Assembly (NCBI GenBank): GCA_041484665.1
Contig: JBGPIA010000001.1
Coordinates: 64,001-128,000, forward strand
Origin: Candidatus Krumholzibacteriia bacterium
Lineage (GTDB): Bacteria > Krumholzibacteriota > Krumholzibacteriia > JAJRXK01
DNA: 64,000 bases
Direction: 5' to 3'
Below are positions 22,342-50,916 of the stretch, piece by piece. The position numbers were made by a program, and so were the translations under genes. The notes beneath the pieces were generated by a model that saw nothing but the letters and a program-made list of their open reading frames with translations, ran no database searches and was not told where the DNA came from. The first letter of the stretch is position 1. Each line of letters opens with the position of its first letter.

Positions 22342-22708
22342 CGATGTCACCTCTCCGTCTGCCTGAGGCTCTGCCTGCCAGCTGCTCGCCGGCCGCCGGT
22401 CCCGGGTCCCGGCTGCGGGACGCGGCCGGGGCGGCGGACGACCATTCTAGACGATGGCGTCCCGGGTGCCCTTGCGCAAACTCAAGCCGGGCCGCGTCCG
22501 GGGCGCCCTGCACTCCGATCCGCCACCGCGGGCCAAAATCGTGCGTGACAACATACTCCTGCCCGCAGTAGCATGGAATCCGCTGCCGGGGTGATGTCCC
22601 CCGTCCCGGGTCCTCTCTCCTCCCCGAGCGGGTTTGCCTGGCCCCAGGCCCTCCGTCGGCAGCTTGGACGCGTCCCCCTGCAACACCTCGAACCACAGGA
22701 AGCATCCC

Positions 22709-23203: not shown

Positions 23204-23411
23204 TACCAGGCGGCGGACGCCCGCATCTGGGCGTGCCGTGCAATCGCTTCGGCCGCCGATCCACATGGATCGGCGGCTGCCGAACGCTCGCCCTCGCAGC
23301 CCCCGCCGCCTCGCTCTCGCGCTCCCTCGCCCCCATCGGCCGCCGCCGCTGCGGCCGCGCGAAGCGTGAGGCTGCGGCAAGGTCGGGCTGCGCGCGGCGC
23401 GGTCCGTGGGA

Positions 23412-25002: not shown

Positions 25003-25004
25003 GG

Positions 25005-26492: not shown

Positions 26493-26551
26493 GTATCCTC
26501 CTGGTCCGGGCCGGCCCCGCGCGCCCGCGGCGGCTTGGGCCTGCTGGGTCG

Positions 26552-27532: not shown

Positions 27533-28575
27533 CCACTGCTCCCCTGCGCGAGCCGCGCCGCGCCGCGCGGGTCGCCATCGCCCGCGACCACGCCGCCCCG
27601 GGCCAGGGCTGCGTCCGGGAACGGGCTGCTCAGCGCGAACTCGGCGTCGGCTTCGAGCTCGGCGCGAATGGGCTCGGTCATGGCGTCCAATTGCTGCTCG
27701 CTGGCGAAGCCGTTGACCACCAGATAGCGGCGCAGGCGCGCGATCGGGTCGCGCGCGCGCCAGTACTCCACCAGCTCGAGAGGCACGTAGCCCGCGTCGT
27801 CATGCTCGGCGTGCCCCCTCATCCGGAAGGTCACCGCCTCGATCAGTGTCGGCCCCTCGCCGCGCCGCGCCCGGTGCACCGCGCGCGCCGTGGCGTGGTA
27901 CACCGCGATCACGTCGTTGCCGTCGACACGGTCGCCGCGCACGCCGTAGCCCTGCGCCCGGTCGACGATCCGGGAGTTGGCCATCTGCATCCCGGTGGGC
28001 GTGCTGTAGGCGTAGCCGTTGTTCTCCACGACCAGGATGAACGGCAGCTTCCACGCCGCCGCGAGATTGAGCCCCTCGTGGAAGTCACCGGTGGAAGTGC
28101 CGCCGTCGCCGATCCAGGTGAGGGCGACGTGATCCTCGCCGCGCATCTTCGCCGCCAGCGCCATTCCGGCGAGGACGGGAATGAGCGCGCCAAGCATGCT
28201 GATGGGCGCCACACAGTCGCGCTGCAGGTCACCGAAATGGAGGTTCACGTCGCGGCCGAATGTCGGCCCGGCGGCGCGCGCCATGTACTGGCAGAAGATC
28301 TCCCGCGGGCGGATCCCCTTGACCAGCAGGCTGCCGAGATTGCGGATCATCGGGCCGATCTTGTCCCCAGGACGGAGCGCGTAGGCGCTGCCGACGGAGG
28401 TCGCCTCCTGCCCGAAGCTGCTGTAGAGGCCGCCCACGATCTTGCCCTGGCGGTACAGCTTGCCGAGGCGATCTTCGACCAGGCGGTTCATGAGCATGAA
28501 CCGGTAGAGCTCTAGCAGCTGCTTCTCGCTGAGGCGGGCGGTGGTGTGTCGCAGCAGGTCGGGCGGGGCGTCCAT
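27520..28575 (-). CDS. 2-oxoacid dehydrogenase E1 alpha subunit (TPP-dependent)
   Basis: GQEA, GDGGTSTGDFHEGLN...ENN TPP motif, RMRGHAEHDD. Confidence 0.93.
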   Translation of the reverse strand: MDAPPDLLRHTTARLSEKQLLELYRFMLMNRLVEDRLGKLYRQGKIVGGLYSSFGQEATSVGSAYALRPGDKIGPMIRNLGSLLVKGIRPREIFCQYMARAAGPTFGRDVNLHFGDLQRDCVAPISMLGALIPVLAGMALAAKMRGEDHVALTWIGDGGTSTGDFHEGLNLAAAWKLPFILVVENNGYAYSTPTGMQMANSRIVDRAQGYGVRGDRVDGNDVIAVYHATARAVHRARRGEGPTLIEAVTFRMRGHAEHDDAGYVPLELVEYWRARDPIARLRRYLVVNGFASEQQLDAMTEPIRAELEADAEFALSSPFPDAALARGGVVAGDGDPRGAARLAQGSSGWLS

Positions 28576-28598
28576 GGGCTCGTGCGGGTCCCGGCCGC

Positions 28599-29999
28599 TC
28601 AGAAGGCCAGCGGATGCCCAGCGGCAGCATGGCTCGCCTCGGCCATCCCCTCCGCGAGCGTGGGGTGCGGGTGCACGATGCGCGAGAGCTCCTCGTTGGT
28701 GGCCTCCAGGCCCAGCAGCGCGCACGCCTCGCCGATCAGATCGGTGGCGTGCGGCCCGATGATGTGCACGCCCAGCAGCTCGTCATACCTGCACTCCCTG
28801 ACCAGCTTGATGAAACCGCCCGCCTCGCCCAGGATGCGCGCCTTGCCGCTGGCGGCCCACGGGAAGCTGGCGGCCACGACGTCGTAGCCCCGGGCTTTCG
28901 CCGCCGCTTCGGTGAGCCCAATGCTGGCCACCTCGGGGTGGCAGTACGTGCAACCGGGGATCTTGTCGTAGTCCAGCGGCCGCGTGGGAACGCCGGCGAT
29001 GGTCTCGGCCGCGACGATCCCTTCGGCCGACGCCACGTGGGCCAGCCACGGGGTGTTGACGAGATCGCCGATGGCGTAGACCCCCGGGAGACTGGCGCGC
29101 ATGTTGCCGTCGACCATGACGTAGCCCTTCTCGAGCGCCACCCCGGTCTCCTCCAACCCACAGTTCTCGCTGTTGGGGGCGCGCCCCACCGCCACCAGCA
29201 GCACGTCGACTGCCAGCGCCTGCTCCTGCTTGCCCTGCTCGAGCAGCAGCTGCACGGCGTTGCCTTCGACCGTCGCGGACTTCAGAGTCGCGTTGGTGCG
29301 CACCTCGATGCCCTGCTTCTTGAAGGCGCGCGCCAGCTCCGCGCTCACGTCCTCGTCCTCGATGGGCAGTACGCGCGGGAGCATCTCGATCAAGGTCGTC
29401 TTGCTGCCGAAGCGCGCGAAGATCGAGGCGAACTCGGTGCCTACGGCACCCGCGCCGAGCACCGCCAGCCGCCGCGGGACGTCCTGGATCTGCAGGATGT
29501 GATCGCTGGAGAGGATGCGGCGGCCATCCGTAGGGAACGCGCGCATCTCACGCGGGCGGCTGCCCATCGCCAGGATGATGCCCTTGCGTGACCGGAGGCT
29601 GCGCGCCTTGCCGCTCTCGGTCACCTCCACCGTGGAGGGGCCGGTGAGCCGCCCGCGACCGCGCTCCACGCTGATCTTGTGCTTCTTGAAGAGGAACTCC
29701 ACGCCCTTGGCGTTCTTGCTGACGGCGTCGTCCTTGCTGCGCATCACGGCGGGGAAGTCGATTGTGGCGTCGCCGACGCGCACGCCGCACCGCCCAGCGT
29801 CCCGGATCTGTGTCAGCAGGTCGGCGGCGTGCAGCATCACTTTGGTGGGGATGCAACCCCTCAGCAGGCAAGTGCCCCCCAGACGATCGTCGAACTCGAC
29901 GACCGCCGTGCTGAGACCCAATTGCGCACCCCGGATCGCCGCCACGTAACCGCCGGGTCCGCTTCCGATCACGACCAGGTCGTACTCGCGGTCTGCCAC
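28599..29999 (-). CDS. lpdA: Dihydrolipoyl dehydrogenase (E3)
   Basis: GSGPGGYVAAIR, GGTCLLRGCIPTK, HPHPTLAE; GTG start with AAGGAG upstream. Confidence 0.96.
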   Translation of the reverse strand: MADREYDLVVIGSGPGGYVAAIRGAQLGLSTAVVEFDDRLGGTCLLRGCIPTKVMLHAADLLTQIRDAGRCGVRVGDATIDFPAVMRSKDDAVSKNAKGVEFLFKKHKISVERGRGRLTGPSTVEVTESGKARSLRSRKGIILAMGSRPREMRAFPTDGRRILSSDHILQIQDVPRRLAVLGAGAVGTEFASIFARFGSKTTLIEMLPRVLPIEDEDVSAELARAFKKQGIEVRTNATLKSATVEGNAVQLLLEQGKQEQALAVDVLLVAVGRAPNSENCGLEETGVALEKGYVMVDGNMRASLPGVYAIGDLVNTPWLAHVASAEGIVAAETIAGVPTRPLDYDKIPGCTYCHPEVASIGLTEAAAKARGYDVVAASFPWAASGKARILGEAGGFIKLVRECRYDELLGVHIIGPHATDLIGEACALLGLEATNEELSRIVHPHPTLAEGMAEASHAAAGHPLAF

Positions 30000-30310
30000 C
30001 TCAGTGCTCCTTCTACCGCGCGTAGAGGGATTTCCAGCCGACCCGCCCGCGTTGGACGACCGCAGGCGGCTGGCCGGGCCTAAGGTATCACGAAATCGGC
30101 ACCTGCCAATGGCTGGAGGGGCTATTGGTTCCGACCAGTACGATCCGGATCTTGTCTTGATTGGTGCCAGGGGACGCACCGGCAGGACTCCGCCCCGGCC
30201 ACGCGCGCCACGGGAATGCCGTCGATTGACCGCTGCGCTGCGTGGGCCTAAACTGTCCCCCGCCTCTGCCTCCCCCGACCGCCGCTCCCCACCGCCTCGA
30301 AGGAGATGCC

Positions 30311-30607
30311 TTGCAAGGAGATGCCCGGCCAATGCGGGCCGAGCAGGTGAAGTGGCAGGAGATCGAGGGGGAAGGCATCCTCGTGAACCTCGAGACGGGC
30401 TACTATTTCAGCCTCAACCCGGTCGGCCTCTTCATCTGGAGCCACTGCGACGGTCAGCAGACCTGCCGGCAGATCGCCGCGGGTCTGGTCGAGCACTTCG
30501 ACGTGGACGAGGTGACGGCCTACCGGGATGTGGAGAGCTTCCTCGCGCAGATGGACGCCGAGGGCTTGCTTCGCGTGCTCCCTCCCCGCACGCCCGCGGA
30601 GCGCTGA
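30311..30607 (+). CDS. PqqD-family RiPP recognition element (lasso B1-like); start 30311 (TTG) or 30332 (ATG)
   Basis: EIEGEGILVNLETGYYFSLNPVGLFIW...IAAGLVEHFDV...DVESFLAQMDAEGLL, typical RRE pattern. Confidence 0.9.
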   Translation: MQGDARPMRAEQVKWQEIEGEGILVNLETGYYFSLNPVGLFIWSHCDGQQTCRQIAAGLVEHFDVDEVTAYRDVESFLAQMDAEGLLRVLPPRTPAER

Positions 30608-30621: not shown

Positions 30622-31044
30622 GTGCGGCTTGCGCGCTATTCATCTCCCGCTACCTGGCGCCGCTGTTGGCGCATGTTGCGAACCTGGTGGACGATGCCCA
30701 GCCGCATCCGCCGGCTGCCGTTGGATCAGCTGTTGGCCACCCTCGATCCACGCGGGCCGGTTCCGGCGGAGCGACCGGACACCGCCATAGAGATCGCCGA
30801 GATGGCTCGGTTCCTCCTGTACCGCACACCGCTGCCGCTACATAACACCTGCATGGTGCGCAGCCTCACCCTGTATCACTGCCTGCGCGCCGAGGGTGCC
30901 CCGGCCTCGGTCGTTTTCGGCGTGAAGCCGGGGAAGGAGATCCGCGAGGGACATGCCTGGCTTGAGCTTCGGGGAGAGCCTTACCTCGAGCCGGATGCGC
31001 GCCGCCGCGGATTTTCTCCGATTTTTCGCTATCCGCAGGACTGA
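30622..31044 (+). CDS. Lasso peptide B2-type transglutaminase-like leader peptidase
   Basis: CMVRSL (catalytic Cys), VVFGV, GHAWLE (His, Glu); C-terminal part of ORF 30004..31044. Confidence 0.88.
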   Translation: MRLARYSSPATWRRCWRMLRTWWTMPSRIRRLPLDQLLATLDPRGPVPAERPDTAIEIAEMARFLLYRTPLPLHNTCMVRSLTLYHCLRAEGAPASVVFGVKPGKEIREGHAWLELRGEPYLEPDARRRGFSPIFRYPQD

Positions 31045-31063: not shown

Positions 31064-32053
31064 GTGAGCATCGTCCGGAGCTTCCAACTCCACGGGGAGC
31101 GGATCCGCATCGAGGCGCAAAGCGAGCCGTGGGCGGACTCCGTCGACGAGATCCTCGGCGCCTACCGCACGGTCGAGGAGGCCCGGGACGAGGCGACGAT
31201 TCGCGTCGCGCTCGCGGGAGAGCAACATCCCGCGCGCCTTCCCGCAGACCTTGAGCTGCGGTCCCGCTTCGAGGATCTGGAGTTTTGGTCCACCCGGGAC
31301 CACAGCGTTGTGTGGATCGATGTCCACGGCCGCGGGTGGGTCCGCGTCCAACCTGAGGCGGGAGAGATCGACGCCCGGCTGGCTCTCGACCCGCAGGCGG
31401 ACGGCTGGCTGGTGGCACACCACGCGTTCTATCCAGCGCTCCTGGAGGTCCTCAAGGAACGCGGGATGTTTCCCCTTCACGCCGGATTGGTCGCGCAGGG
31501 GGCAGGTGAGGGAGCGGAAGGTCTGCTCGTCTGCGGCGCCTCCGGCGCCGGCAAGACGACGCTCACGCTGGCACTGGCAGGGAAAGGCTGGTCGCTGCTG
31601 GGGGACGACACCTGCTTCCTGCGCAGTCGGGCAGGCGGCGTGGAGGGATTGGCCTTCTGGGAGGATCTCCACGTGACCGAGTCCACCCTGGATCGGTTCC
31701 CCGCGCTGTCGTTCCTGCGCCGCCAGCCGGTCCGGCGCGGTAACTGGAAGCGGCACTTCGGAATCCACGAGCTTTCTCAGCTCAAGGTGGCGGAGCGGGC
31801 ACCCCTGCGCTGGCTCTTGTTCCCCAGGGTCTGTGGCGTGCCCGCGACCGTGATCGATCCGCTCACTGGGGCGGAGGCGGTCCGCCGACTGGCACCGCAG
31901 AGCATGATCCCGATCCGGCCGGCCGTGGTGGCCGCCCAGCTGGCGGTGCTTGCGCAATTGGGGCGCACCGTCCGGGCGGCCGAGGTGCGGATGGGCACCG
32001 ATCTCGATGAGGTGGTTGGCGTTGTACACACTTTTCTGGCGCTCAGAGATTGA
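31064..32053 (+). CDS. HPr kinase-related P-loop kinase (RiPP tailoring type)
   Basis: PLHAG, Walker A GASGAGKTT, LLGDD, like kinases of phosphorylated lasso peptide clusters. Confidence 0.82.
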   Translation: MSIVRSFQLHGERIRIEAQSEPWADSVDEILGAYRTVEEARDEATIRVALAGEQHPARLPADLELRSRFEDLEFWSTRDHSVVWIDVHGRGWVRVQPEAGEIDARLALDPQADGWLVAHHAFYPALLEVLKERGMFPLHAGLVAQGAGEGAEGLLVCGASGAGKTTLTLALAGKGWSLLGDDTCFLRSRAGGVEGLAFWEDLHVTESTLDRFPALSFLRRQPVRRGNWKRHFGIHELSQLKVAERAPLRWLLFPRVCGVPATVIDPLTGAEAVRRLAPQSMIPIRPAVVAAQLAVLAQLGRTVRAAEVRMGTDLDEVVGVVHTFLALRD

Positions 32054-32218: not shown

Positions 32219-35200
32219 ATGCGATTGGCAAGAGCTAAGTGGCTTGCTGGCGCGTTGCTGCTGGTTCCTGCGCTGGCGAGCGGGGCCCAGTCCCCGACCA
32301 GCCGGCCGCCCGTGACACCGGCTGCGGCAGGCGACGGCGCGCAGATCGTGCGTGACGCGCTGGCTTCCTGGGACGGCTGGAGGCCCGGGGCCTCGCCGCA
32401 AGCGGCTCTGCGCGTCAACGCGATGCCGAGCACCTATGGCGCGGACACTGGCTCGCCCCAGCCCGCCTCGTGGATCGGCCGAGACAATATTCTCTGGGGA
32501 AACGTGACGGGCGGGACGGCCCCCTACACCTACACGGTCGCGTTCGATGACGGCAGCCCGGCTGCCTCCGGCGCCGTCGCCGACCGGCGCTACATCGTCG
32601 TGCACCACTCGTACACGACGCTGGGTCCCAAGTTCGTGACGTTGACCGTGCAGGACAACGTGGGAGCGACCGACACGGAGACCTTTCGCATCGACGTCGG
32701 CCCCTACGGCATCCAGTCGCGCGTCCAGGCCGCCATCGAGGACGGCCTGCGCTACCTGTACCTGACGCAGCTGTCCAGCGGCCGCTGGAACGCGCCGGCC
32801 TCCGAAGGCATCCACGCGCTGGCGTTCCAATTGCGCAATCACGACAAGAGCGCCAACCCGACGAACGACATCTACGCGGAGACGCTCCAGGCCTTCTGGA
32901 ACAACATCTTCTCCAGCATGACCCGGTTCCCCATCGGCGCCCAACCCGCTGGCAATCCGGACACCAACGGCAATGGCTACTCCCTCTACGCCAACGGATT
33001 CACGCAGTGCTACAACCACGGAATCCTGATGCTGGCCATGGCCGGGATCAAGGACCTCAACGAGGTCGTCACCGTGGGTAGCGAGGCGGGCCGCACGATC
33101 AAGGATGTCCTGCAGGACATGATCGACCTCGCGGCGTACTCGCAGACCGAGACCGGCGTGGAGCGCGGCGGCTGGCGCTACACCCTGGTCACGTCCAACT
33201 CCGGCAGCGACAACTCGGCCGTCCAATGGGTCGTCCTGGGTATGGTGGCCAGCGAGGGCAGGGGCCTGACGATCCCGGCGTTCGTGAAAACCGAGCTGGA
33301 GATCTGGACGCTCTACAGCCAGGGGGCCGACGGTGGCTTTGGCTATACCGACAAGAACTTCTGGAACAACATCGCCAAGACCGGCTCGGGGCTCATGCAG
33401 CTGGCGTGGCTGCACTACGCACCGACCTCCGCGCAGGTGCTGGCCGCCGCCAACTTCCTGAACGCCCACTGGACGCTCCAGTCCGATAACTTCGGCTACG
33501 CGGAGATGTTCTACACCAACGAGTACGCGATGTACGCCGTGAAGAAGGGGCTCGAGTCGTTCTCGCCGCCCATCTCGTTCATCGCCGCGCACGACTGGCA
33601 GGACGAGTTCAACAAGACACTCGTCTACGACGCGCTCAGCGACTACGACGGCGTGGGCGGGATCGCGTACAACAACGACTTCAACGAGCAGATCTACGGC
33701 ACCGGCGACCTGGTCGACGGACGCTGGACCTCGTCCTACTGGCTCGGCTCCAACGACTACAGCCTGGTGACGGCGGCCCGCGTCCTGACGCTGACCGCTG
33801 GGGTCAGCAGCCTCGTGCCCGTGGCGAACTGCACGGTCACGCCGCCCTCGGCAGGGCCGGGCGTCACCATCACCCTGGACGGCACCGGCTCCTTCCATCA
33901 GGACCCCAACCACGAGATCGTGCAGTACCTCTGGGACTTCGACGCGTCCAACGGAGTCAATTTCGCTCCGCCGGACGGCGTGGGTTCCGTCGTCACCACC
34001 AGCTACTCGCTGGGAGTGGGCGAGCTGTCGCGCACCTTCACGGTGACGCTGCTCGTGCGCGACAACGCGGTGCCGCCCGTGGAGCGCCAGACCACCTGCC
34101 GGGTGGTGATCAGCCGGGAGAACCACCCGCCGGTGGCCGTGCCCGGCGGGCCGTACGCCGCCTGCGTCGGACAGCGGATCTGCGTCGACGGCAGCGGCAG
34201 CTACGACCCCGATGCCGGTGACTTCGTCGCCGAGTACCACTGGGACCTCGACGGAGACGGCCAGTTCGACGATTTCGACGGACCGGCCACCTGCGTGACC
34301 TTCCCGGGGCTCTACGACGGATTCATCGGCTTGCAAGTCGTGGACAGCTTCGGCGTCCCCAGCCAGAACAGCGGCGCCGTAGTCCGGATCTTCACCGCGC
34401 TCGGTGACCTGAGCACTGCGGACTCCGACCTGGTCGTCGACAGCGATGCCGGCTGCGTCCAGGGAGGCCAGACGTGCGTCACGGGCACCTACCGCGTGCT
34501 CAGCGACGATCCCACGTACGTGGTGGCGGCAGCGCGCGTGGACTTCTTCCTGGACGACCCGACCAATCCGGTGAACCGCATCGCGACGTTCACGGACAAC
34601 AACCTGGTGGGCGGCATGACGCTGAGCCATCAGGCCTGCTTCAACCGGCCGGACAACCTGGCGCACGCCGTATTCATGGTGCTCGATCCCAATCAGGTCC
34701 TCAACGAGTGCGTCGAGACCGACAACGTCGCCGTGCACCGTTTCGCGTGCGGGTGCGACGCGCAGCTCGCCGACCTTGCGCTGGTCGGATACGAGACCGT
34801 GTCGTGGGATCCCGGCACTCTCATCTGGGAGGTCCGGGTCAGCATCAAGAACAACGGCCCGGGCACGGCGCACGACGTCAACGCCACGCTCATGGAGGAC
34901 ATCCCCTGGGTGACTCCCGTGGACGGAGCCAGCAGCTACGGGGACATCGCGTCGGGCGACACCAAGTTCGGGGACAGCTTCACGCTGGACCTGACCGGCC
35001 GTCCGGGCGCGGGTGGCTTCAACGTGTTCTTCGACGTATTCTACACGGACAACTGCCAGACGGCCCACGAGGTCCGTCTCGACCCCGAGGCCGTCACCCC
35101 TGGTGAGAATGGCCGCAGCGCGCTGCGGACGTACGCGCTGAGCCAGAACTCCCCCAATCCCTTCAACCCGCGGACGATGATCTCCTTCACGCTGGCCAAT

Positions 35201-35404
35201 CCCGGCCACGTGAAGCTGGAGGTCTTCGACTTGCGTGGCCGTCTGGTCAAGACCCTGGTCGACGCCAATCTCGCGGCGACGCAGCACAGCGTCGACTGGG
35301 ACGGCACCGACCTCACCGGACAGCCCGTGAGCTCTGGCCTGTACTACTACCGCCTGAACGCGGCTGACTTCTCGCAGACTCTCAAGATGACGCTCGTGAA
35401 ATAG
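32219..35404 (+). CDS. Large secreted multidomain protein: PKD-like, alpha/alpha-barrel (prenyltransferase/terpene cyclase-like), two PKD, CARDB-like, FlgD-Ig C-terminal domain
   Basis: AAGGAGG RBS; signal peptide; AIEDGLRYL..TQLSSGRW, GGWRY, DNSAVQW, SQGADGGFGY; LDGTGS..YLWDFD and YHWDLDGDGQFDD; SQNSPNPFNPRT...SGLYYYRL. Confidence 0.8.
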   Translation: MRLARAKWLAGALLLVPALASGAQSPTSRPPVTPAAAGDGAQIVRDALASWDGWRPGASPQAALRVNAMPSTYGADTGSPQPASWIGRDNILWGNVTGGTAPYTYTVAFDDGSPAASGAVADRRYIVVHHSYTTLGPKFVTLTVQDNVGATDTETFRIDVGPYGIQSRVQAAIEDGLRYLYLTQLSSGRWNAPASEGIHALAFQLRNHDKSANPTNDIYAETLQAFWNNIFSSMTRFPIGAQPAGNPDTNGNGYSLYANGFTQCYNHGILMLAMAGIKDLNEVVTVGSEAGRTIKDVLQDMIDLAAYSQTETGVERGGWRYTLVTSNSGSDNSAVQWVVLGMVASEGRGLTIPAFVKTELEIWTLYSQGADGGFGYTDKNFWNNIAKTGSGLMQLAWLHYAPTSAQVLAAANFLNAHWTLQSDNFGYAEMFYTNEYAMYAVKKGLESFSPPISFIAAHDWQDEFNKTLVYDALSDYDGVGGIAYNNDFNEQIYGTGDLVDGRWTSSYWLGSNDYSLVTAARVLTLTAGVSSLVPVANCTVTPPSAGPGVTITLDGTGSFHQDPNHEIVQYLWDFDASNGVNFAPPDGVGSVVTTSYSLGVGELSRTFTVTLLVRDNAVPPVERQTTCRVVISRENHPPVAVPGGPYAACVGQRICVDGSGSYDPDAGDFVAEYHWDLDGDGQFDDFDGPATCVTFPGLYDGFIGLQVVDSFGVPSQNSGAVVRIFTALGDLSTADSDLVVDSDAGCVQGGQTCVTGTYRVLSDDPTYVVAAARVDFFLDDPTNPVNRIATFTDNNLVGGMTLSHQACFNRPDNLAHAVFMVLDPNQVLNECVETDNVAVHRFACGCDAQLADLALVGYETVSWDPGTLIWEVRVSIKNNGPGTAHDVNATLMEDIPWVTPVDGASSYGDIASGDTKFGDSFTLDLTGRPGAGGFNVFFDVFYTDNCQTAHEVRLDPEAVTPGENGRSALRTYALSQNSPNPFNPRTMISFTLANPGHVKLEVFDLRGRLVKTLVDANLAATQHSVDWDGTDLTGQPVSSGLYYYRLNAADFSQTLKMTLVK

Positions 35405-35477
35405 TCGACACCCGCGTGGGGTCGCCCCCAGGGCGGCCCCGCCTGACACGTACGAACTCGGAGGAAAGATCTCAACG

Positions 35478-35588
35478 ATGGAAACGCCCAGCAGGGAGCG
35501 CCGTCCCTACGAGTCCCCGGTGGTCACCAAGCACCAGAGCCTCGCGGACATCACGCTCTTCACGAACTTCGGTCCGCCGGGCAGCTGA
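35478..35588 (+). CDS. RiPP precursor 1 (36 aa) METPSRERRPYESPVVTKHQSLADITLFTNFGPPGS
   Basis: GGAGG RBS; YxxPxVxxxQxxxxxT lasso-type leader; paralog 390 bp downstream; below ORF-track cutoff. Confidence 0.85.
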   Translation: METPSRERRPYESPVVTKHQSLADITLFTNFGPPGS

Positions 35589-35609
35589 GCCCGCGGCACA
35601 TCGGAGACG

Positions 35610-35646
35610 AGGCCCTCAGCCCGCCGGGCAGAGGGCCTTTCGTTTT
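35610..35646 (+). terminator. Rho-independent terminator after precursor 1
   Basis: AGGCCCTCaGCCC-gcc-GGGCaGAGGGCCT followed by TTCGTTTT. Confidence 0.8.
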
Positions 35647-35783
35647 CCCCCCGGCCCCGTCGGCAAGCGTCCGGCCGTGCGCAGTGCGCGGGCAGCCCGC
35701 GGCGCGGGTCGTCCGCAGCGGGAGCAATCGGGAATCTGGGGGCATGACCGGTCGCGGGGGCGGGGGCCGCCGGGGGGGCCGGG

Positions 35784-35813
35784 TTGTCCGCGCGGTGCGC
35801 GCCGTGGTAGAAT
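35784..35813 (+). promoter_or_regulatory. Putative sigma70 promoter for precursor 2
   Basis: TTGTCC-18 nt-TAGAAT with extended -10 TG. Confidence 0.5.
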
Positions 35814-35868
35814 GGATGCCATGGATGAGAGGGGGCGCCCAACCGCAGCATCCCGTAGAGGAGTCCCG

Positions 35869-35994
35869 ATGTCGGCAGATATTTCGGCCAGCCAGGGGTC
35901 CCCGGACCGTCGACCGTACGAGTCACCGGCGATCACCAAGCACCAGAGCCTCAAGGAAATCACCCTCTTCACGAACTTCGGGCCGCCGAGCTGA
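35869..35994 (+). CDS. RiPP precursor 2 (41 aa) MSADISASQGSPDRRPYESPAITKHQSLKEITLFTNFGPPS
   Basis: AGAGGAG RBS; same leader motif and near-identical core as precursor 1; 3' end of ORF 35416..35994. Confidence 0.85.
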   Translation: MSADISASQGSPDRRPYESPAITKHQSLKEITLFTNFGPPS

Positions 35995-36068: not shown

Positions 36069-38378
36069 GTGGGGCGCCCTTCCCCGGGCGCCCCCGGTCG
36101 TCTGTGCCCTGCGCCGTTGCGCTGGTTGGAGAGGCTCGTGCCAGAATCCGTGCGTCGCATCCTCCGTTCCCCGGCCGACTGGGCGCGGGACTCTGCCCGC
36201 TGGCTGGTGGCGATCGTGGCGCTGGTCGTGCCAGCACGGCCCGCCATCGCGCCTGCCGGAAGCAACGCGTGGACCCAGGACGCCGGCCCGTACGGCGGCC
36301 GCATCCTGTGCCTGTTGGTCCACTCCAGCAGTCCATCGAAACTCGTGGCGGGGACGGAGGCTGGTGGCCTGTACGTGAGCGGGGACGGCGGCCAGACCTG
36401 GCAATCGCGCAGCCAGGGCCTCGGCCTGCTCACGGTCAACGACGTGCAAGCCGTTCCGCTGGGCACCAGCACCATCTGCGTGGCGACCAACAACGGTGTG
36501 TACCGCTCGGACAACCTCGGCCAGAGCTGGACGCAGCGCAGCGGCGGGCTGGGATCGCTGCTCACCACCTGCCTGGCGATCCACCCAACCAATGTCGCGC
36601 GGATGCTGTGCGGCACGGTGAACGGGCTCTACGCCACTGCCGATGCCGGCGTGTCGTGGACTCCGGTCAACGCCGGCCTCACCAACAGTTCGGTCGAGCG
36701 CATCCTCTGGGACGTCGGTGGCAACGCGATCTACGCGTGCACCGACGGCGGCGCGTTCCTCAACACCGATCCCCCGGGCACGTGGCTGCCGCGCAGCAAC
36801 GGGCTCAGTGGTCTGGCGCTGTTCACGCGCCAGCTCGTCACCAACCCGGCCGCATCGAGCGAGCTCTACCTTGCCACCTACGGCGGCGTGTTCCACAGCT
36901 TCAGCGGGGGCGGGAGCTGGGAGCTGCACAGCGCGGGCCTGACCGATACCCGGGCGCAAGCACTCTGGATCGACCCCGCCGATGGCATGCACCTGCTGGT
37001 GGGCACCGAGAGCGGAGTGTTCGAGACCTTTGACGGCGCGCTGCACTGGGCCGCGGCCAGTGCGGGCCTCACCGATCGGGTCGTGCGCAGCCTGGCCTAC
37101 GACGGCACGTCGATGCTATGCGGCACGTTTTATCGCGGCGTGCAGCGCCGGACCGGGTCCACCTGGGCGCCGATCAACCAGGGACTGGCCAATACGTTCC
37201 TGCAGGAGATCGCCGTCGACAGCTCGGGGAGCCTGATCGCCGCAGCCGGCTACGGCGGTGTCTATCGCAGCGCGGACGTCGGGAGCAGCTTTGCGCTGGG
37301 CGACGCCGGAATCACCGTGCCCGATGTGCGCACGGTCTGCTTCGATCCCACCAATCCGCAGGTTGTCTTCGCCGGCGCGAACTACGGTGGCGTGTACAAG
37401 TCGACCAACGGTGGCACGACATTCTCGCTGGTGGGGCTGGCCGGGGAGACCGTGCGGGCGATCCGCGTGCACCCGACCAACTCGCTGATCGTCTACGCCG
37501 GGACCTACGATGGCGTCTTCCGCAGCGACAACGGCGGCGGGCTGTGGGTGGCGCGCAGCGCGGGCATGACCGCGGACAACGTCAACGACCTGGAGCTGGA
37601 TCCCACCAACCCCGAGGTCATCTACGCCGGGATCTACCTGGGCTACGTGTACAAGACCAGCAACGGCGGGTTGAGCTGGACGCAGAAGACCAACGGGCTG
37701 GGCGCCAGTATCGTGTTCGACCTGGCCGTCGATCCCGCCGATCCGCAGGTCGTGCTGGCCGCCGGCTTCGAGGGCAAGGGGATCTGGCGCAGCGCGGACG
37801 GCGGCGACACCTGGCACGACGCCAGCACGGGGCTGCCCAACAAGAGCATCTGGAAAGTGAAATTCGACCCGTTCGACGCCTCGCGCGCGTACGCGGCCAC
37901 CCAGGACGGCGTCGCGCGCAGCCTCGACGGGGGCGCCACCTGGGCGGACCTGAGCAACGGACTGCTCGTGAAGGACGTCCGCGACATCGCAGTGGATCCG
38001 CTGAGCTTCCGGACGCTGCGCGCGGCGACCTTCGGCGGTGGCCTCTACACGTTCACGGACATGGCCACGGCGGCCCCCCCCGTCCGGCCGGCGGCGGCCG
38101 AGCTGCATCCCGGCTTTCCCAACCCCTTCAATCCCAGCACGACGCTGGCCTTCGAGCTGCGCGGGGCGGACGCCCGGCGCGTACGCCTGGACGTCTTCGA
38201 CGCGCGCGGGCGCCGCGTGCGTACGCTGCTGGATGCGCCAGCCGATCCGGGCGTGCACCGGGTGACGTGGGATGGGCGCGACGACACCGGCTCGGGTGTC
38301 GCGGGTGGCGTCTACCTGGCGCGGCTGGCCGTCGACGGCCAGGGTGCGGGAGTTCAAAAGCTGACGCTGCTCAAATGA
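36069..38378 (+). CDS. Secreted BNR/VPS10-like beta-propeller repeat protein with FlgD-Ig C-terminal domain (start may be 36138)
   Basis: Repeated Asp-box SxDGGxTW and GVYKS motifs; PNPFNPST...GVYLARL tail. Confidence 0.85.
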   Translation: MGRPSPGAPGRLCPAPLRWLERLVPESVRRILRSPADWARDSARWLVAIVALVVPARPAIAPAGSNAWTQDAGPYGGRILCLLVHSSSPSKLVAGTEAGGLYVSGDGGQTWQSRSQGLGLLTVNDVQAVPLGTSTICVATNNGVYRSDNLGQSWTQRSGGLGSLLTTCLAIHPTNVARMLCGTVNGLYATADAGVSWTPVNAGLTNSSVERILWDVGGNAIYACTDGGAFLNTDPPGTWLPRSNGLSGLALFTRQLVTNPAASSELYLATYGGVFHSFSGGGSWELHSAGLTDTRAQALWIDPADGMHLLVGTESGVFETFDGALHWAAASAGLTDRVVRSLAYDGTSMLCGTFYRGVQRRTGSTWAPINQGLANTFLQEIAVDSSGSLIAAAGYGGVYRSADVGSSFALGDAGITVPDVRTVCFDPTNPQVVFAGANYGGVYKSTNGGTTFSLVGLAGETVRAIRVHPTNSLIVYAGTYDGVFRSDNGGGLWVARSAGMTADNVNDLELDPTNPEVIYAGIYLGYVYKTSNGGLSWTQKTNGLGASIVFDLAVDPADPQVVLAAGFEGKGIWRSADGGDTWHDASTGLPNKSIWKVKFDPFDASRAYAATQDGVARSLDGGATWADLSNGLLVKDVRDIAVDPLSFRTLRAATFGGGLYTFTDMATAAPPVRPAAAELHPGFPNPFNPSTTLAFELRGADARRVRLDVFDARGRRVRTLLDAPADPGVHRVTWDGRDDTGSGVAGGVYLARLAVDGQGAGVQKLTLLK

Positions 38379-38543: not shown

Positions 38544-41500
38544 TCACGAGCGCGCACGTGCTGGAACGGAACCTGGGGCGTGGCGCGAACCTGCGTCCCG
38601 GGAGATCGCCAGGCCGGCGAGCAGCCACAGCAAGGCCGCGGCCAAGAGCGGCGTACCGCGTGTCGGGTCACGGCTCGCCAGAGAGCCCTCCGCAGGCTGC
38701 GCGGCTCCTGCGTGCCCCCAACCGGCCGCCGAGAGAGCCGCCAGCCGCACGGCATCCACGCCGCGCGCGCGCAACTCTGCGGCCGGATCGTCGGCGAACG
38801 CCACGTCCAGCCCTGTGGCGCCCGTGCTGTCGATGACGCGCACGGGGTCCGCCAGCGACGGGCCCACTGGACGTAACACGCCGGGCACGACGGCCTCCAG
38901 CGCGACGGTGTCGCCCAGTGCGTCCACCAGCGCCAGTCCGCTCGCATGTCCATCCGCGAGCCCTCCCGCCGTCGTCAGGCCTGGCTCGTTCGCCGGGACG
39001 AGCGACCAGGGTGGTGTCGACGACTCTACGCGCAATCGGGGAGCGCTCCCTCCCTCCCAGCGCACGCGCGGTTGCTCCTGTCGCGTGAGCCACGCCAAGA
39101 GCTGCGCCACCGCCGCGGGCCAGCGCGCGTCCTCTGGATTCCACGGCGGGCCCGCTGTGCTGGCCAGCACGGCCATACGGCCGGGGCCAAACGAACCCAG
39201 CGCCAGCAGCGGGTCGCGCTGCAACCCCGCGCTCCAGGCCACCTGCGCCAGTTGCGGCGTCAGAGCCACATAGCGTACTGCCCCCGCCGGCAGCAGCGCG
39301 CTCCACGCCGCCAGCTCCGCGCGCGCGGGCTGCGGCGCGGCGACGAATCGATCGCGTGGTGCCGAGTCCACCGTGCGCGCCAGTACCTCACCGAGCTCCT
39401 GGAAGCGGCGCAGCACCAGATGGCGCCCGCCGGTGCGCGCGGCCAGCTCGCGCAACGCCGGCGTGCCCCGCGTTCCGACCTCGATCGCCGTCACCGGCAG
39501 GTCGCCGACGGCGTCGAGCCAGGACTGCAGCGACTCGTCGCCGGTCACACCATCGCTGAGGACGACGATGCGCCGCGCGCGCGGGGGCTTTGCCGCGACG
39601 CCGGCGCTCCCATCGCCAGCAGCGGCGGCCTGCAGGAGACCGGCGGCTTCCTGCAGCGCCGGGCGCAGCACCGTGCCGCCCGAGGCGTGCACGCCCCGCA
39701 GTGCCTCCTGCACCTGGGTCAGCGTGCGCCGCGGCTGCGGCGGGAGCGTGCGCAGCACCCGGTCGGCGAAGGCGACCAGCCCGACGCGCTCGCTGGCCTC
39801 GGCGGCGCGCAGCGCGCCGGAGAGGGCGAGCAGAGCGCGGTCGAGCTGCGAGACGCCGTCCTCCAGCGTCGCCATGCTGCCGGAGACGTCCAACAGGAAG
39901 ACCCAGTCCCCACGCGAGGGATCGCGCTCCTCGCGCACCTGCAGGCGGACGGGAAGCCGTTCCTCCAGCGCCAGACGGCCGCTCTCACCCCGCTGCAGCC
40001 AGTCGCCCGGGCCCGCGAGCAGCAGGAGCCCCGTGCCCAGGTCCATGGCGCGCAAGACCTGGACCTGCAGCGCTGCCACCAGCGATTCCGGACACGCGTC
40101 GAGCACCCAGACGTCGGGACGGCCGCCGGCGGGCGGCTGTGGCAAGGAGGTCGTGCGCTCGCCCGAGGCGGCGGTCCAGCGAACCGTCGGCAGTGGCCCC
40201 GTGCTCCAGCCGTAGGCGAGGATGTCGTCCTGCGGCCAGACGTCGCGAGGCCCCGCAGCCTCCGGCTGCAGCTCGGCGGTGATGGTGTGGGCGCCCGTGG
40301 CCAGCGGTGGCAGCGGCAAGGCCAGCCGCACGAGCGCTCCGTTCGCTTGCGGGTCGCGCTGCGCCACGCCGTCGCGCACCAGCGCGGCGAGATCGCGGTC
40401 CAGCAGGACGCGCCCGTCGAGCGTCACGGCGAGCCGGCGCTCGGCGTCGCCCGGATCGAGCGCCAGCGTCAGCGTGCGACCCGCCCCGGCGGCCTGCTGC
40501 TCGACGCGCAGCTGCGTGACGGACGCGTCGCCGCTGCGCCCCGCCGGCGCTGCTGCGATGGAGCATTCACCGACGGGCAGTGACGCAGCAAGCGCTTGGG
40601 GCGTGTCCTCGAAGCGGCCGTCGCTGACGAGCAGCACCCGCGGCGCACGCAGGCGCGTGGCGCCCATCAGCCGGCGCAACGGCGCCGCCAAGCGCGTGTG
40701 CGGTGGCGTGGGGAGATCCCGCAGGCCCGCCTGCAGCCAGCGTTCGAGCTCCACGGGAGTGAACGGCCAGGCCCGGCGAGGGGTGGGTGGGAGCAGCCAC
40801 CGACCGTCCTCCCCGTCGAGCGCCGCCACGGCCAGCCGCTGCCCGGGCCCGGCCGCGCCCAGGAACTCCCGCAGCGCCGCAGCGGCGGCCGCAGGGGCCA
40901 GCGCGCGGCAGCTGGGAGATGCGTCGACGATGAGCACGCAGTCCCCGGCCGACGGCCGCAGCGCCAGGGCCAGCAGGGCCAGCAGCGCGATGCCCAGGCC
41001 CGCGCGGCGACGGCGCGGCCACCTGGCCAGCGCCAGCGCCGCGGCCGAGACCAACCAGGCGGCCGCAGCGAGCCAGGGCGAGAGGGCAAGGTCCGTCCCC
41101 GCTCCGCCGGTGCGGCCTCCTGTGGCGGCGGCCGCCAGCGCGCCCGGCGACACAGGCTCGCTGCCGGCGGCCGGCAGTTCGCCGGGACGCGTCAGAGCCG
41201 CGGGCCAGTTGAACCGCGGGGAGGAGAGGCCAGGCCCCGCGCACACGTCCTGGGCGGGCAGCAGCGCCCGCGCCACGCGCAGGGCCGCCAGGGCCGGGCC
41301 GAGCGATCCATCGGGGGCTGCGGGGTCGGGCAGGTTCACGACCGCGGCACGGGACTCCCAGAGCAGGATCCTGCCCCCGGCCATCGCGGCCCACTGCACA
41401 CCCAAGTCGAGTACGCCGCAGGCGCGGGACACGCCCGCAAGGTCTAGCCCCGCCGCCGGCCCCGCGAACTCCAGCGCGCCCGACCCGTCGTCCAGCTGGG

Positions 41501-42728
41501 GGCCCGTACGGCTGGAACGGAGCTCCTCCAGCCGGAGGCCGGGAGCTGCGCCGGCCCGCGGCGCGATCCACTCCCAGCACAGGCTATCTGGGAAGGCCGG
41601 TGGCGCGTCGCCGACCACCACCAGGAGCTCGTGCTGGGCGCTGCCGGTCCGCCCGCGTTGGGCGCGCCACCGCGCCCACTCCGCCGCGTCGGGCCGCGGG
41701 GGCAGGCGCGCGCGGTCGACCCTGCGCAGGTCGATGGCCGGCCAGGCCTCCACGGCCGTTGCCCAGGGGGAGCCGGCTGCGGACACGAGCCAGACCAGAG
41801 GCGGCGCAGGCAACTCCAGCACCTGACGCTCGGCAGACGATTGCGTGAGCGGCGCAGCTCCCGGCAGAACGTGCGGTAGCGGGCCGTGCCGCGTGGCGCG
41901 GGACTCGAGCTCGACGGTGATCCGTCGTCGCGCACGGCGCCCGGGGTCCGCACCCGGCTCCGGCGGGCTGGGCGGCGTCGGCACGAGCGCCGGATCGATC
42001 TCGACTGCGCCGCGCCCCTGCGCATCGAGCGGGATCTCCTGCGAGGCACCGGCGGTCTCGGCCACGACGCTCGTGGTGGGGCCGGCACCCTCGACCGCCA
42101 CGCAGAGTCGACCGGCCAGGTCGAGATGCGCGAGCGACAATCGCGGGCCGGCCTCGCCGCCGGGCGCAGCGAGCCGGTGCGCTCGCCAGCGGCCCCGCGT
42201 TGCAGGCGGCTCTCGCCAGCAGAACACCTCCACTGCGCGCAGGGGATCGGGGGCGAGCGCGCACAGGAGCTCGCCCAGCGTCGGCCCGGCGGGGTCCACG
42301 GAGCTCTCCCGCGCCGAGGCCAGGTCCGGGAACGGACCGGTGGGCGACCGGCCCGCGCAGTAGATCTCCACCCCCGCCGCAGCGGCCGCCAACGCGGCGA
42401 TGGTCTCCTCCACGGGGCGGCGCGTCGCGTCAGGGGCCTCCAGCGTACCGGCGTCCAACAGCACCACCGCGCGCGACGGCAAGGCGGGCGAAGGGCGCAG
42501 CGGCGCCGCGAGCGCGCCGATCCAAAGCACCCCTGCTACCAGCGTCAGCCACGCCCGCGGATCGCGCCAATGGATGCGGCGGCGCGCCGGTGCGCGCCCG
42601 GGCTCGTCGGCGAACAGCCAGACGGGAGCGAATCGCTGCCGCAGCGCGCCGCCCCGTCGCAGCAGCAAGGCCACGACCAAGAGGAGTGGCACGAGCAACA
42701 ACAAGGAGACTGGACGCAACAAGCTCAT
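38544..42728 (-). CDS. Membrane-anchored VWA-domain protein (BatA-like N-terminus)
   Basis: N-terminal TMs; MIDAS-like DASPS...VSDG and DVSGSM...GGT...LSDG; C-terminal TM; next to DUF58/MoxR. Confidence 0.72.
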   Translation of the reverse strand: MSLLRPVSLLLLVPLLLVVALLLRRGGALRQRFAPVWLFADEPGRAPARRRIHWRDPRAWLTLVAGVLWIGALAAPLRPSPALPSRAVVLLDAGTLEAPDATRRPVEETIAALAAAAAGVEIYCAGRSPTGPFPDLASARESSVDPAGPTLGELLCALAPDPLRAVEVFCWREPPATRGRWRAHRLAAPGGEAGPRLSLAHLDLAGRLCVAVEGAGPTTSVVAETAGASQEIPLDAQGRGAVEIDPALVPTPPSPPEPGADPGRRARRRITVELESRATRHGPLPHVLPGAAPLTQSSAERQVLELPAPPLVWLVSAAGSPWATAVEAWPAIDLRRVDRARLPPRPDAAEWARWRAQRGRTGSAQHELLVVVGDAPPAFPDSLCWEWIAPRAGAAPGLRLEELRSSRTGPQLDDGSGALEFAGPAAGLDLAGVSRACGVLDLGVQWAAMAGGRILLWESRAAVVNLPDPAAPDGSLGPALAALRVARALLPAQDVCAGPGLSSPRFNWPAALTRPGELPAAGSEPVSPGALAAAATGGRTGGAGTDLALSPWLAAAAWLVSAAALALARWPRRRRAGLGIALLALLALALRPSAGDCVLIVDASPSCRALAPAAAAAALREFLGAAGPGQRLAVAALDGEDGRWLLPPTPRRAWPFTPVELERWLQAGLRDLPTPPHTRLAAPLRRLMGATRLRAPRVLLVSDGRFEDTPQALAASLPVGECSIAAAPAGRSGDASVTQLRVEQQAAGAGRTLTLALDPGDAERRLAVTLDGRVLLDRDLAALVRDGVAQRDPQANGALVRLALPLPPLATGAHTITAELQPEAAGPRDVWPQDDILAYGWSTGPLPTVRWTAASGERTTSLPQPPAGGRPDVWVLDACPESLVAALQVQVLRAMDLGTGLLLLAGPGDWLQRGESGRLALEERLPVRLQVREERDPSRGDWVFLLDVSGSMATLEDGVSQLDRALLALSGALRAAEASERVGLVAFADRVLRTLPPQPRRTLTQVQEALRGVHASGGTVLRPALQEAAGLLQAAAAGDGSAGVAAKPPRARRIVVLSDGVTGDESLQSWLDAVGDLPVTAIEVGTRGTPALRELAARTGGRHLVLRRFQELGEVLARTVDSAPRDRFVAAPQPARAELAAWSALLPAGAVRYVALTPQLAQVAWSAGLQRDPLLALGSFGPGRMAVLASTAGPPWNPEDARWPAAVAQLLAWLTRQEQPRVRWEGGSAPRLRVESSTPPWSLVPANEPGLTTAGGLADGHASGLALVDALGDTVALEAVVPGVLRPVGPSLADPVRVIDSTGATGLDVAFADDPAAELRARGVDAVRLAALSAAGWGHAGAAQPAEGSLASRDPTRGTPLLAAALLWLLAGLAISRDAGSRHAPGSVPARARS

Positions 42729-42765
42729 GGATCTCGCCGCAGGATCGTAGACGCGCACCGAGCGC

Positions 42766-43629
42766 TCAGGAGGTCACGACGAGGCCTGCGGCGCGCAGTG
42801 GGCCCATCAGCGCCGCCTCCCAGGATTGCGCGGCGTCCACGTCCACCACGCGCACGCCCGCCGCACGCAACGCCGCCGTACGCCGAGTCCGGTGGTGGAG
42901 CAAGCGCGCGCGTGCCGCGGCGACGGTCGGCGGGTCGAGGACCGTTTGCCGGCGCCCACGCCCCTCCGCGTCGAGCAACTCCACGGCCTCCCCCGTCGCC
43001 ACCAGCGGGTCGTCGGGATGGGTGAGCACGATCACCCAGCCCGGCGAGGGGCCCGCCAGCGCTGCGACCCAGCCCCCGGCGGGAGCGTCATCGAGGAAGT
43101 CGGTCAGCACGACACTCACCCCGCGTGGCGCGCCGCGCAGCAGCGACGCGAGCGCTGCGGCCGGTGCGCGACCGCCGCAGGCGAGCCCGCGCAGCCTTGC
43201 TGCAAGCATGGCGCTGCTGCTGCGGCCATGGGCCACCGTCACGAGCGTTCGAGGCGGGTCGGCCAGCGCCGAGAGGCGCACGTCCTCCAGCCCGGCCAGG
43301 CCGATCGCCGCGAGCGCGGTGGCGATCTCGCGCGCGCGGTCGTAGCGCTCTGGAAAGGCTGCGCCCATGGACCCGCTCGTATCCAGGATCAGGTGCAGGC
43401 GCTGCTCGCGATCGCGGCGGTAGGTGCGGACGACCGGGCGATCCAGTCGCGCCCACGCGCGGTGATCGATGCGCCTTGGATCGTCGCCGAGAGCGTAAGG
43501 GCGGTGCCCGGCCAGCGTCTGCCCCTGGCCGGTGAGCGCCGTCGAGACGCTGCCGGGACGTTCGCCGAGGGCGAGCTTCTCGGAGGCCAGCGCCAGCCGG
43601 TCGAGCAGCGGCCCTCCCACCTCACGCAT
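42766..43629 (-). CDS. DUF58 domain protein
   Basis: HRPYALGDDPRRIDHRAWAR, LILDTSGSM, VVLTDFL. Confidence 0.88.
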   Translation of the reverse strand: MREVGGPLLDRLALASEKLALGERPGSVSTALTGQGQTLAGHRPYALGDDPRRIDHRAWARLDRPVVRTYRRDREQRLHLILDTSGSMGAAFPERYDRAREIATALAAIGLAGLEDVRLSALADPPRTLVTVAHGRSSSAMLAARLRGLACGGRAPAAALASLLRGAPRGVSVVLTDFLDDAPAGGWVAALAGPSPGWVIVLTHPDDPLVATGEAVELLDAEGRGRRQTVLDPPTVAAARARLLHHRTRRTAALRAAGVRVVDVDAAQSWEAALMGPLRAAGLVVTS

Positions 43630-44644
43630 CGGCTTGGACCTCGGACAACAGCCGCACGATCGCCTGCTCGATGGTGTCGCCCTCGGCCTCGCGCTCGTAG
43701 CGCAGCCGCAGCCTGTGTCGCAGCGCCGCAGGCGCGGCGGCCCGCACGTCCTCGAAGGCGATGTGCTCGCGGCCCGCGGCGAGCGCACGCACGCGCCCGC
43801 AGCGCAGCAGCGCCAGCATCGCGCGCGGCCCGGCGCCCTGGCGCAGCCCCCCGGCCACGCCGCGCGCTGCGCTCTGCGGGTGAGTGGCAAGCACCAGCCG
43901 CGCCGCGTAGCGCGCGACCGCGTCGGCGACGGGAACCTGCGCGGCCGCGGCAATCGCCTGCACCGTGCCCGCGGGCTCGAGCACGGCGCTCGGCAGCGCT
44001 GCTGTGCCCGCACCGTGCCGGCGGAAGATGTCCACCAGCGCGGCCTCGCCCGGGGACTCGATGCGCGCCTGTAACAGGAAGCGGTCCAGCTGCGCCTCGG
44101 GCAGCGGGTAGGTGCCTTCCAGGTCGAGGGGATTCTGCGTGGCCACGACGAAGAAGGGGCGCGGCAGCGCGAAGGTCGCGCGGCCGATGGTAACCGTCCC
44201 CTCCTCCATGGCCTCCAGCAGCCCCGCTTGCGTGCGCGGGGTGGCGCGATTGATCTCATCGGCCAGGATCACGTTGGCAAAGACGGGCCCTTGGTGGACG
44301 TCGAAGCGCACGCTCCCGTCGGCGCCGCGCGCGAGCACCTCGCTTCCGGTGATGTCGGTGGGCATCAGATCCGGCGTGAACTGCACGCGCGAGAATCGGC
44401 CGCCCAACAACGATCCGAGCGTACGCACCAACAGCGTCTTGCCCAGACCGGGCACGCCCTCGATCAGGATGTGCCCGCCGCCGAGCAAAGCCCACAGCAC
44501 CTCGTCGATGAGCGGCTCCTGCGAGACGATGATCTGCGCGAGCCCGCTGCGCAGCGCCGCGTGGGCCCGGGCGAACGTGTCGAGGGCCGCGTCGGACGCC
44601 GCCTTGGAGCGTAGGTTGCTGGTAGGCCCGCTGGATTGGGTCAT
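43622..44644 (-). CDS. moxR: MoxR family AAA+ ATPase
   Basis: GVPGLGKT, RVQFTPDLMPTD, DEINRA, ATQNP.EGTYPLPEAQLDRF. Confidence 0.95.
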   Translation of the reverse strand: MTQSSGPTSNLRSKAASDAALDTFARAHAALRSGLAQIIVSQEPLIDEVLWALLGGGHILIEGVPGLGKTLLVRTLGSLLGGRFSRVQFTPDLMPTDITGSEVLARGADGSVRFDVHQGPVFANVILADEINRATPRTQAGLLEAMEEGTVTIGRATFALPRPFFVVATQNPLDLEGTYPLPEAQLDRFLLQARIESPGEAALVDIFRRHGAGTAALPSAVLEPAGTVQAIAAAAQVPVADAVARYAARLVLATHPQSAARGVAGGLRQGAGPRAMLALLRCGRVRALAAGREHIAFEDVRAAAPAALRHRLRLRYEREAEGDTIEQAIVRLLSEVQADA

Positions 44645-47679: not shown

Positions 47680-47777
47680 TAGTTTAGCACCTCGTCGGGG
47701 CCGGCCGGTCCAGAGCGGCACGGGCATGGCGGCAGGCCGCAGGGGCCGGCTTGGAGCGGCAGCGAAAGGCGGACACG

Positions 47778-48666: not shown

Positions 48667-48776
48667 GGCAGTTCAGCGCAGGCGCGCCGCCGGGCTGCGC
48701 CACGCGCGGCGTCACGGTCGCGCAGCAGCGCGCACCCCCGCCGCGCTCGAGTGTGCCCCCAGCAGAGGGAGCGAGC

Positions 48777-49841: not shown

Positions 49842-49846
49842 CGCGC

Positions 49847-50851: not shown

Positions 50852-50916
50852 CAGAACCAGGCAGCGGCGCGCGGCGGCGCCGGGCGGCCAAGCGGGCGAG
50901 CGCGGGAGGAGGAGAC

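Follow-up and report, generated by a model that had tools for sequence, protein, structure and literature searches.

Two short lasso-type precursors in a Candidatus Krumholzibacteriia bacterium and their probable role in a cyclase-free pathway to linear phosphopeptides

In a 64,000-nucleotide stretch of DNA from a Candidatus Krumholzibacteriia bacterium (the window, to which positions refer unless stated otherwise), we find two precursor genes, P1 and P2, which, together with an orphan paralogue elsewhere in the same genome, P3, likely encode the substrates of a cyclase-free, lasso-derived RiPP pathway, a reading to which we assign a probability of roughly two in three. As judged from sequence and from analogy with characterized systems, this pathway would yield linear phosphopeptides that are phosphorylated on Thr2 of the core and released by a B2 peptidase cutting after a Thr-Leu pair, with a possible sugar cap, export, and action at the cell surface. 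Because no ring-closing enzyme is found, short linear peptides are the most likely products, and the combination of a kinase, a nucleotidyltransferase and a conserved Ser/Thr at core position +2 points to a linear phosphopeptide. The analogies draw on three systems: a peptide class of Bacillota first described in 2026, the linear polyphosphorylated peptides or LPP, which are encoded by lppA-K-B-S-D-N (Popov et al., PMC13381572); the bsf cluster for a phosphorylated lasso peptide in Bradymonas sediminis, comprising A, B1, B2, C, D, K and N (PMC10368454); and lasso clusters of the paeninodin/pseudomycoidin type (PMC6993621).

P1 (35478-35588, + strand) encodes 36 amino acids, with the leader at 35478-35558 and a predicted nine-residue core at 35559-35585, and P2 (35869-35994, + strand) encodes 41, with the leader at 35869-35967 and a predicted eight-residue core at 35968-35991. 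Each is preceded by a ribosome-binding site, as a preliminary description of this DNA had claimed, namely GAGGAG (35858-35863) 5 nt before the ATG of P2 and GGAGG (35460-35464) 13 nt before that of P1, the latter being a long spacing. The leaders share Y-E-S-P-x-[VI]-T-K-H-Q-S-L-x-x-I-T-L, and the lasso-type spacing earlier proposed for them holds, with Tyr at -17, Pro at -14, Val or Ile at -12, Gln at -8 and Thr at -2. The predicted cores, FTNFGPPGS in P1 and FTNFGPPS in P2, contain neither Asp nor Glu, which supports the view, also taken in that description, that they cannot be lassos. P3 (G000:C16:59755-59925, equivalent to L001:9756-9926, - strand; G000 denotes the source genome, of 5.45 Mb and 93.65% completeness) has the leader of P1 and P2 and the same first seven core residues, in a core of 23 residues that ends in Pro, while those of P1 and P2 end in Ser; none of the three has Asp or Glu at core positions 7-9. 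No maturation genes flank P3 for roughly 10 kb in either direction, and a profile search found no fourth precursor in G000.

The leader register of P1 and P2 is not due to chance, because a relaxed form of the pattern matches only four times in a six-frame translation of the genome (10.9 million residues), three of these matches being P1, P2 and P3, and because family members turn up in 14 of 208 genomes; that both are real precursor genes is thus borne out. Of the 28 codons shared by P1 and P2, 17 are identical, six differ synonymously and five non-synonymously; the codons quoted earlier for the two copies are correct, and taken alone these differences are only suggestive of selection on the peptide. 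The genes are not quite as hidden as had been supposed, since public gene catalogues already list both proteins, though without names. No Pfam or NCBIfam family matches P1 or P2, the precursor profile has no match in the PDB, and a scan of viral contigs gave 75 pattern matches, none of which was confirmed. A G+C-rich hairpin (35413-35445, + strand, z -3.1) lies between P1 and the preceding gene, which encodes a 1061-aa protein; a terminator-like hairpin with a U-rich tail follows 3' of P1 (35605-35650, + strand, z -2.7; not flagged by a strict terminator scan), and a sigma-70-like promoter with an extended -10 element, TTGTCC-18-TAGAAT, stands upstream of P2 (35784-35813, + strand; one found, against a mean of 0.0 in shuffles).

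Searched with the precursor profile, 208 genomes of the phylum Ca. Krumholzibacteriota yield 25 genes, spread over 14 of them, and 11 loci were detected in metagenomes as well. A model of the leader alone recovers exactly these 25 genes, so that, at the sensitivity of this search, no variants without the core features were overlooked. Weak matches in G053, G147, G164, G184 and G195 (E 0.002-0.008), which lack the motif and do not recur with the profile that gave the 25 genes or with the leader-only model, were rejected as chance. Precursor homologues adjoin RRE genes, and the first ground for doubt named in the preliminary description, a lack of homologues near such genes, therefore falls away. 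A wider search gave 66 representatives at 50% identity, 64 of them anchored and two left out. In these 64, three leader positions hardly vary, namely Leu -6 (63 members), Lys -5 (61) and Thr -2 (63); core position +1 is Leu, Phe or Tyr in 54, and position +2 is Ser or Thr in 61, a count biased by a search model that included this position. The same preference is seen in 24 of the 25 phylum genes, a less model-biased set, and the residue is Ser, which was absent from the first model, in 11 of those 24; all 20 genes in the 11 genomes that carry the kinase described below keep both Thr -2 and Ser/Thr +2. Core length ranges from 5 to 37 residues in the anchored members, with eight or fewer in 23. 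Gln in place of Gly at -8, to which attention had earlier been drawn, is indeed present in P1 and P2 but is no family trait (Gln in 5, Gly in 13 and Glu in 28 of 64), and we rejected it as a family signature.

The genes around P1 and P2 lie on one strand in the order RRE, B2, kinase, 1061-aa PKD/FlgD protein, P1, P2 and BNR-repeat/FlgD protein. A sigma-70-like promoter (30226-30254, + strand), a consensus match only (one found, against a mean of 0.1 in shuffles), precedes the gene for a discrete RRE, a PqqD/B1-type leader-binding protein of 91 aa (30332-30607, + strand; PF05402, 1e-21) that is the sole PF05402 match in G000. Its relatives in the PDB are TbiB1 (5v1u, 1e-7) and the entries 9x90 (9e-7) and 9x8z (9e-5), which are PbaB1 and LppB, respectively (PMC13381572). 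The next gene encodes a lasso-type B2 leader peptidase of 140 aa (30622-31044, + strand; NF033537 above cut-off, PF13471), likewise the sole PF13471 match in G000, whose Cys77 and His111 are invariant in the alignment. From its spacing, Glu123 is the likely third residue of the triad. A B2 scan of genome_contigs gave no match. The third gene encodes an HprK-like kinase of 329 aa (31064-32053, + strand), which scores 33 bits (3e-8) against the HPr-rel-A family TIGR04352, below the cut-off of 200, and whose His, Walker A and Asp-Asp motifs are invariant in nine homologues. A complex prediction for RRE, B2 and P2 returned scores of 0.19 and 0.22, against a mark of 0.32.

Before these genes, positions 21298-29999 hold what we take, from sequence motifs, to be a run of aldolase, lipoate and 2-oxoacid dehydrogenase genes. 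In G001, G006, G008 and G009 the far end of the run is occupied by a precursor gene; at that end G000 has the gene of what is presumably a small CHRD-like secreted protein (22634-23203), and no precursor. On the other side, positions 38544-47727 (- strand) carry genes for a MoxR-type AAA ATPase, DUF58 and vWA proteins and degenerate ABC genes, a block in whose place the relatives carry an exporter, the nucleotidyltransferase and a Na/Ca exchanger. Sugar-nucleotide genes, from a GDP-mannose dehydratase-like gene onward, border the locus at 48753-52224 (+ strand), as they do in G008, and echo the capsule context of LPP clusters.

The pathway genes tend to occur together. The HprK-like kinase is present in 11 of 208 genomes, all of them among the 14 with precursors, and 10 of these 11 have a strong short B2; as the 14 genomes represent three families, these counts are not independent evidence. 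The loci of relatives contain B2, a PF14907 nucleotidyltransferase, an ABC-2 ATPase and permease, one or more precursors, RRE and kinase, in varying order, and none of these loci holds a lasso cyclase. The cyclase model NF033535 reaches its cut-off in none of 10 genomes (the kinase-bearing genomes with G101 left out), and G008, which is 97% complete, has no match to it whatsoever. G000 has six full-length AsnB-like genes, all outside the locus, and all six begin with Met/Val-Cys-Gly, the glutaminase Cys motif, like glutamine amidotransferases. True lassos made by a cyclase encoded elsewhere might be argued from the canonical leader, the B1 and B2 components, the genome being 93.65% complete, and the 14 of 64 members, perhaps a relic, that have Asp or Glu at positions 7-9 in a core of at least 13 residues. 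We regard this as extremely improbable, given the cyclase result and the many cores of eight residues or fewer, and for P1 and P2 it is effectively refuted by the sequence, since none of the three G000 cores has an acidic residue at 7-9.

Within the linear phosphopeptide pathway, the RRE would, by homology, bind the YxxPx[VI] leader, and the HprK-like kinase would add at least one phosphate to Thr2 of the core, as the conservation of this position and the register of the proven LPP site suggest. The LPP leader motif (YxxPxVLxHQxIxFETxxS) and Ser3 site align without gaps with Tyr, Pro, Val/Ile, His, Gln, Leu, Thr and Thr+2 of P1 and P2, so that Thr+2 falls on the LPP phospho-site (PMC13381572). 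Against phosphorylation of Thr2 stands the fact that all three G000 cores carry Thr, while LppK, which polyphosphorylates Ser3, does not accept the S3T variant (PMC13381572). The B2-coupled precedent is also one residue off, because BsfK, although it accepts Thr at its site, acts at +3 and never on Thr2 (PMC10368454). Furthermore, P1 and P2 both end in Ser, as at a paeninodin-type site, and the same pathway could place its phosphate there, a mode known for ThcoK, SyanK and PsmK (PMC10368454, PMC6993621); we consider this quite improbable, given that only 10 of the 64 anchored members end in Ser, against the 61 with Ser/Thr at +2, and that P3 ends in Pro.

The modified precursor would then be cut by B2 after Thr(-2)-Leu(-1), releasing linear peptides of 8, 9 and 23 residues. 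This site, which the preliminary description had proposed, fits the register in which BsfB2 cleavage was shown experimentally (Tyr -17, Pro -14, Leu -12; PMC10368454), which we adopt because the peptidase here is a B2. Were the cut instead to follow the conserved Thr, as in LPP, whose cleavage after T-1 matches the register exactly (PMC13381572), the cores would be one Leu longer and the phospho-site would become +3. Such a cut is very improbable, since in LPP it is made by a SipW-type peptidase, for which TIGR02228 finds no match in G000, while the locus holds a B2 gene and BsfB2 cuts 17 residues after Tyr (PMC10368454).

A PF14907 nucleotidyltransferase would probably cap the phosphate with a sugar, a weaker step of the proposal that is modelled on PsmN, which is needed for hexose on the phosphate (PMC6993621). 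Its gene lies on another contig of G000 (G000:C10:24650-25650, equivalent to L071, - strand, start codon tentative) and in the locus itself in relatives; the protein is the only PF14907 match in G000, keeps an Asp-x-Asp motif, and shares 42% identity with its counterparts in the G008 and G001 loci. The gene is convergent with that of a 1315-aa protein ending in an FlgD-like tail. Against a sugar cap, the nucleotidyltransferase is unlinked in G000, and deletion of lppN changed nothing in the LPP study (PMC13381572). That the product is exported and works at the cell surface together with the adjacent secreted beta-propeller is probable, but this is the weakest step. The precursor locus of G000 contains no exporter, and for the permease of the relatives' loci tblastn finds no orthologue in G000, the best profile match being 2e-9.

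These gaps might mean that the pathway is decaying in G000, or that the peptides act through their leaders alone, as RRE decoys or regulators, with irrelevant cores. The system does decay elsewhere: G004, G006 and G009 have precursors and no kinase or B2 match, Thr -2 is lost in three of their five precursor genes, and these genomes are in all appearance natural knock-outs with decayed precursor copies. In G000, however, RRE, B2 and kinase are intact with their catalytic motifs, and FTNFGPP is kept in all three paralogues despite synonymous drift, so that we give decay or a decoy role little credence. In the decayed loci of genus g2 (L058 in G009, L061 in G006, and L059, L062 and L070), RRE is kept, the B2/kinase/ABC block is gone, and one precursor copy lacks Thr -2. 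A strong B2-type peptidase also occurs in a genome without the precursor family (G174:C44:2162-2482), where it may belong to a true lasso cluster or to another system.

Two large, probably secreted proteins flank the precursors. The first, of 1061 aa (32219-35404, + strand), has PKD, helical barrel-like, PKD/CARDB-like and FlgD-type C-terminal domains, and its homologues adjoin precursors in G070 and G087. Its model has a pLDDT of 54; the N-terminal half, of low-confidence fold, has no match at E<=0.001, its weak fold matches being alpha-barrels of the GH76, thioester-protein and squalene-cyclase types. A CARDB-like Ig domain of this protein (domain X, 34760-35113, + strand), for which an Atlas search gave only CARDB-like leads below 0.9, belongs to a close subfamily (12 matches, E<1e-20) confined to seven kinase-bearing genomes and seen only in genomes with kinase and precursor; seven of the 12 genes lie in a gene run around a precursor and five far from any. 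Domain X as such is not unique to the system, an idea that we rejected because 104 of the 208 genomes contain distant homologues. Common to the G070 and G087 loci is also a two-gene pair (L069:9007-10980 and L063:1145-3106) encoding a protein of 240-260 aa and a squalene-cyclase-repeat protein, the G000 homologues of which are on contig C4 (G000:C4:71295-73902).

The second protein (36069-38378, + strand, with the true start probably downstream of 36069) combines a tandem beta-propeller of BNR repeats with an FlgD-type C-terminal domain. Its model is a confident tandem propeller (pLDDT 88), and the closest folds are GH74 xyloglucanases and tandem seven-bladed propellers (TM ~0.65, 17-19% identity). 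The double propeller layout recalls, as we assume, that of PorZ of type IX secretion; the NCBIfam match to PorZ is weak, at 33 bits against a cut-off of 260. Orthologues at E<1e-100 occur in six of 208 genomes, and in all six the secreted double propeller stands beside a kinase or precursor, which is particular to this system; a seventh, weaker match (1e-46) is in G094, a genome without a precursor. As five of the 11 kinase-bearing genomes have no orthologue, the propeller is an accessory module. A quick tree of 59 sequences, from which those with fewer than 480 aligned residues were left out, places the seven linked propellers on one side of a branch (SH-aLRT 99), a grouping that also follows phylum. 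In 78 propeller loci from many phyla, pathway genes occur in five, all of this lineage; none of the other 73 held any component, and a general link between BNR propellers and the pathway was rejected.

We further considered that the modified core might be attached covalently to secreted proteins or to a glycan of the surface, where it would serve as a tag or anchor and the linked propeller would handle it. In its fullest form, the product would be a surface tag rather than diffusible: the exported phosphopeptide would be joined via its phosphate to a glycan and captured by the secreted double propeller, docking or anchoring the FlgD-tailed proteins with domain X. The placement of the propeller orthologues in all six genomes and the restriction of the close domain-X subfamily are consistent with a tag, as are the sugar-nucleotide genes bordering the locus in family f1 and the occurrence of LPP clusters in capsule loci (PMC13381572). 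Nevertheless, there is no ligase candidate, the propeller is accessory, and no precursor is near five of the 12 genes of the close domain-X subfamily, and we regard both the tag in general and this fuller form as unlikely. If true, the surface tag would make a RiPP part of a protein-display system.

The linear phosphopeptide pathway that we favor would carry the LPP concept beyond Bacillota, into an uncultured phylum and over to another peptidase, and suggests that the shared core of such pathways is RRE, kinase and nucleotidyltransferase, not ring closure. An eight-residue core with one candidate site would be a very simple substrate for probing the LPP product and role and the PF14907 enzymes, and a concrete candidate for a binding partner is at hand in the secreted propeller that is inherited with the pathway. 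Our literature search, in which subscription journals were mostly outside the scope, turned up neither a report of a B2-type system that lacks a cyclase nor any paper about this phylum. LPP are called restricted to Bacillota (PMC13381572), and no Krumholzibacteriota came up when six of that paper's supplementary files were searched by term; the accessible part of a daptide preprint holds nothing bearing on a cyclase-free B2 system, and PMC11912497, as far as its accessible text goes, concerns another glycosyltransferase.

Compared with lasso peptides, the system has a leader of the YxxPxL...T(-2) type, a B1 (RRE) and a B2 peptidase, and lacks Asp/Glu at 7-9, a tail to thread and a macrolactam synthetase; it is not a lasso system, because the cores have no acidic residue and no cyclase is found. 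With bsf it shares B1, B2, K, N and ABC components, the register with Tyr at -17, Pro at -14 and Leu at -12, and a kinase that would act near the core N-terminus and tolerate Thr, whereas bsf has a cyclase, a ring-forming acid, a Ser3 site instead of +2, and Ile at -2 (PMC10368454). Paeninodin and pseudomycoidin resemble it in an HprK-like kinase and an uncharacterised nucleotidyltransferase, but are cyclised lassos with phosphate on the C-terminal Ser (PMC6993621), and paeninodin-type leaders are mostly WxxP (PMC13381572).

The likeness to LPP extends further. The LPP core genes encode an SpI peptidase, an RRE, a kinase of the HprK-like type, an NTP transferase and a pump resembling MsbA, with no cyclase (PMC13381572); here too, we find a stand-alone RRE, together with an HprK-like kinase and an NTP transferase (on another contig, in the locus in relatives), and no cyclase, with one to three precursors that have a conserved leader and a variable C-terminus, and with a conserved Ser/Thr as far from Tyr as Ser3 of LppA. 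Tyr, Pro, Val/Ile, His, Gln and Thr of the LPP motif are in register in P1 and P2, with Leu in the place of Ile and Thr in that of Ser; the motif's Leu that follows Val and its Phe-Glu that precedes Thr are mismatches. The systems differ in their peptidase (LppS of the SipW type in LPP, a B2 cysteine peptidase here), in their exporter (MsbA-like in LPP, here an ABC-2 pair in relatives), in the frequent use of Thr for Ser, in cores that can be 7-9 aa, against 45 aa in LppA (PMC13381572), in phylum, and in the secreted FlgD-tailed proteins linked here. By analogy, then, the system is a cousin of LPP that probably works like LPP but is not an LPP member, because it has a B2 instead of a SipW-type peptidase and a different exporter.
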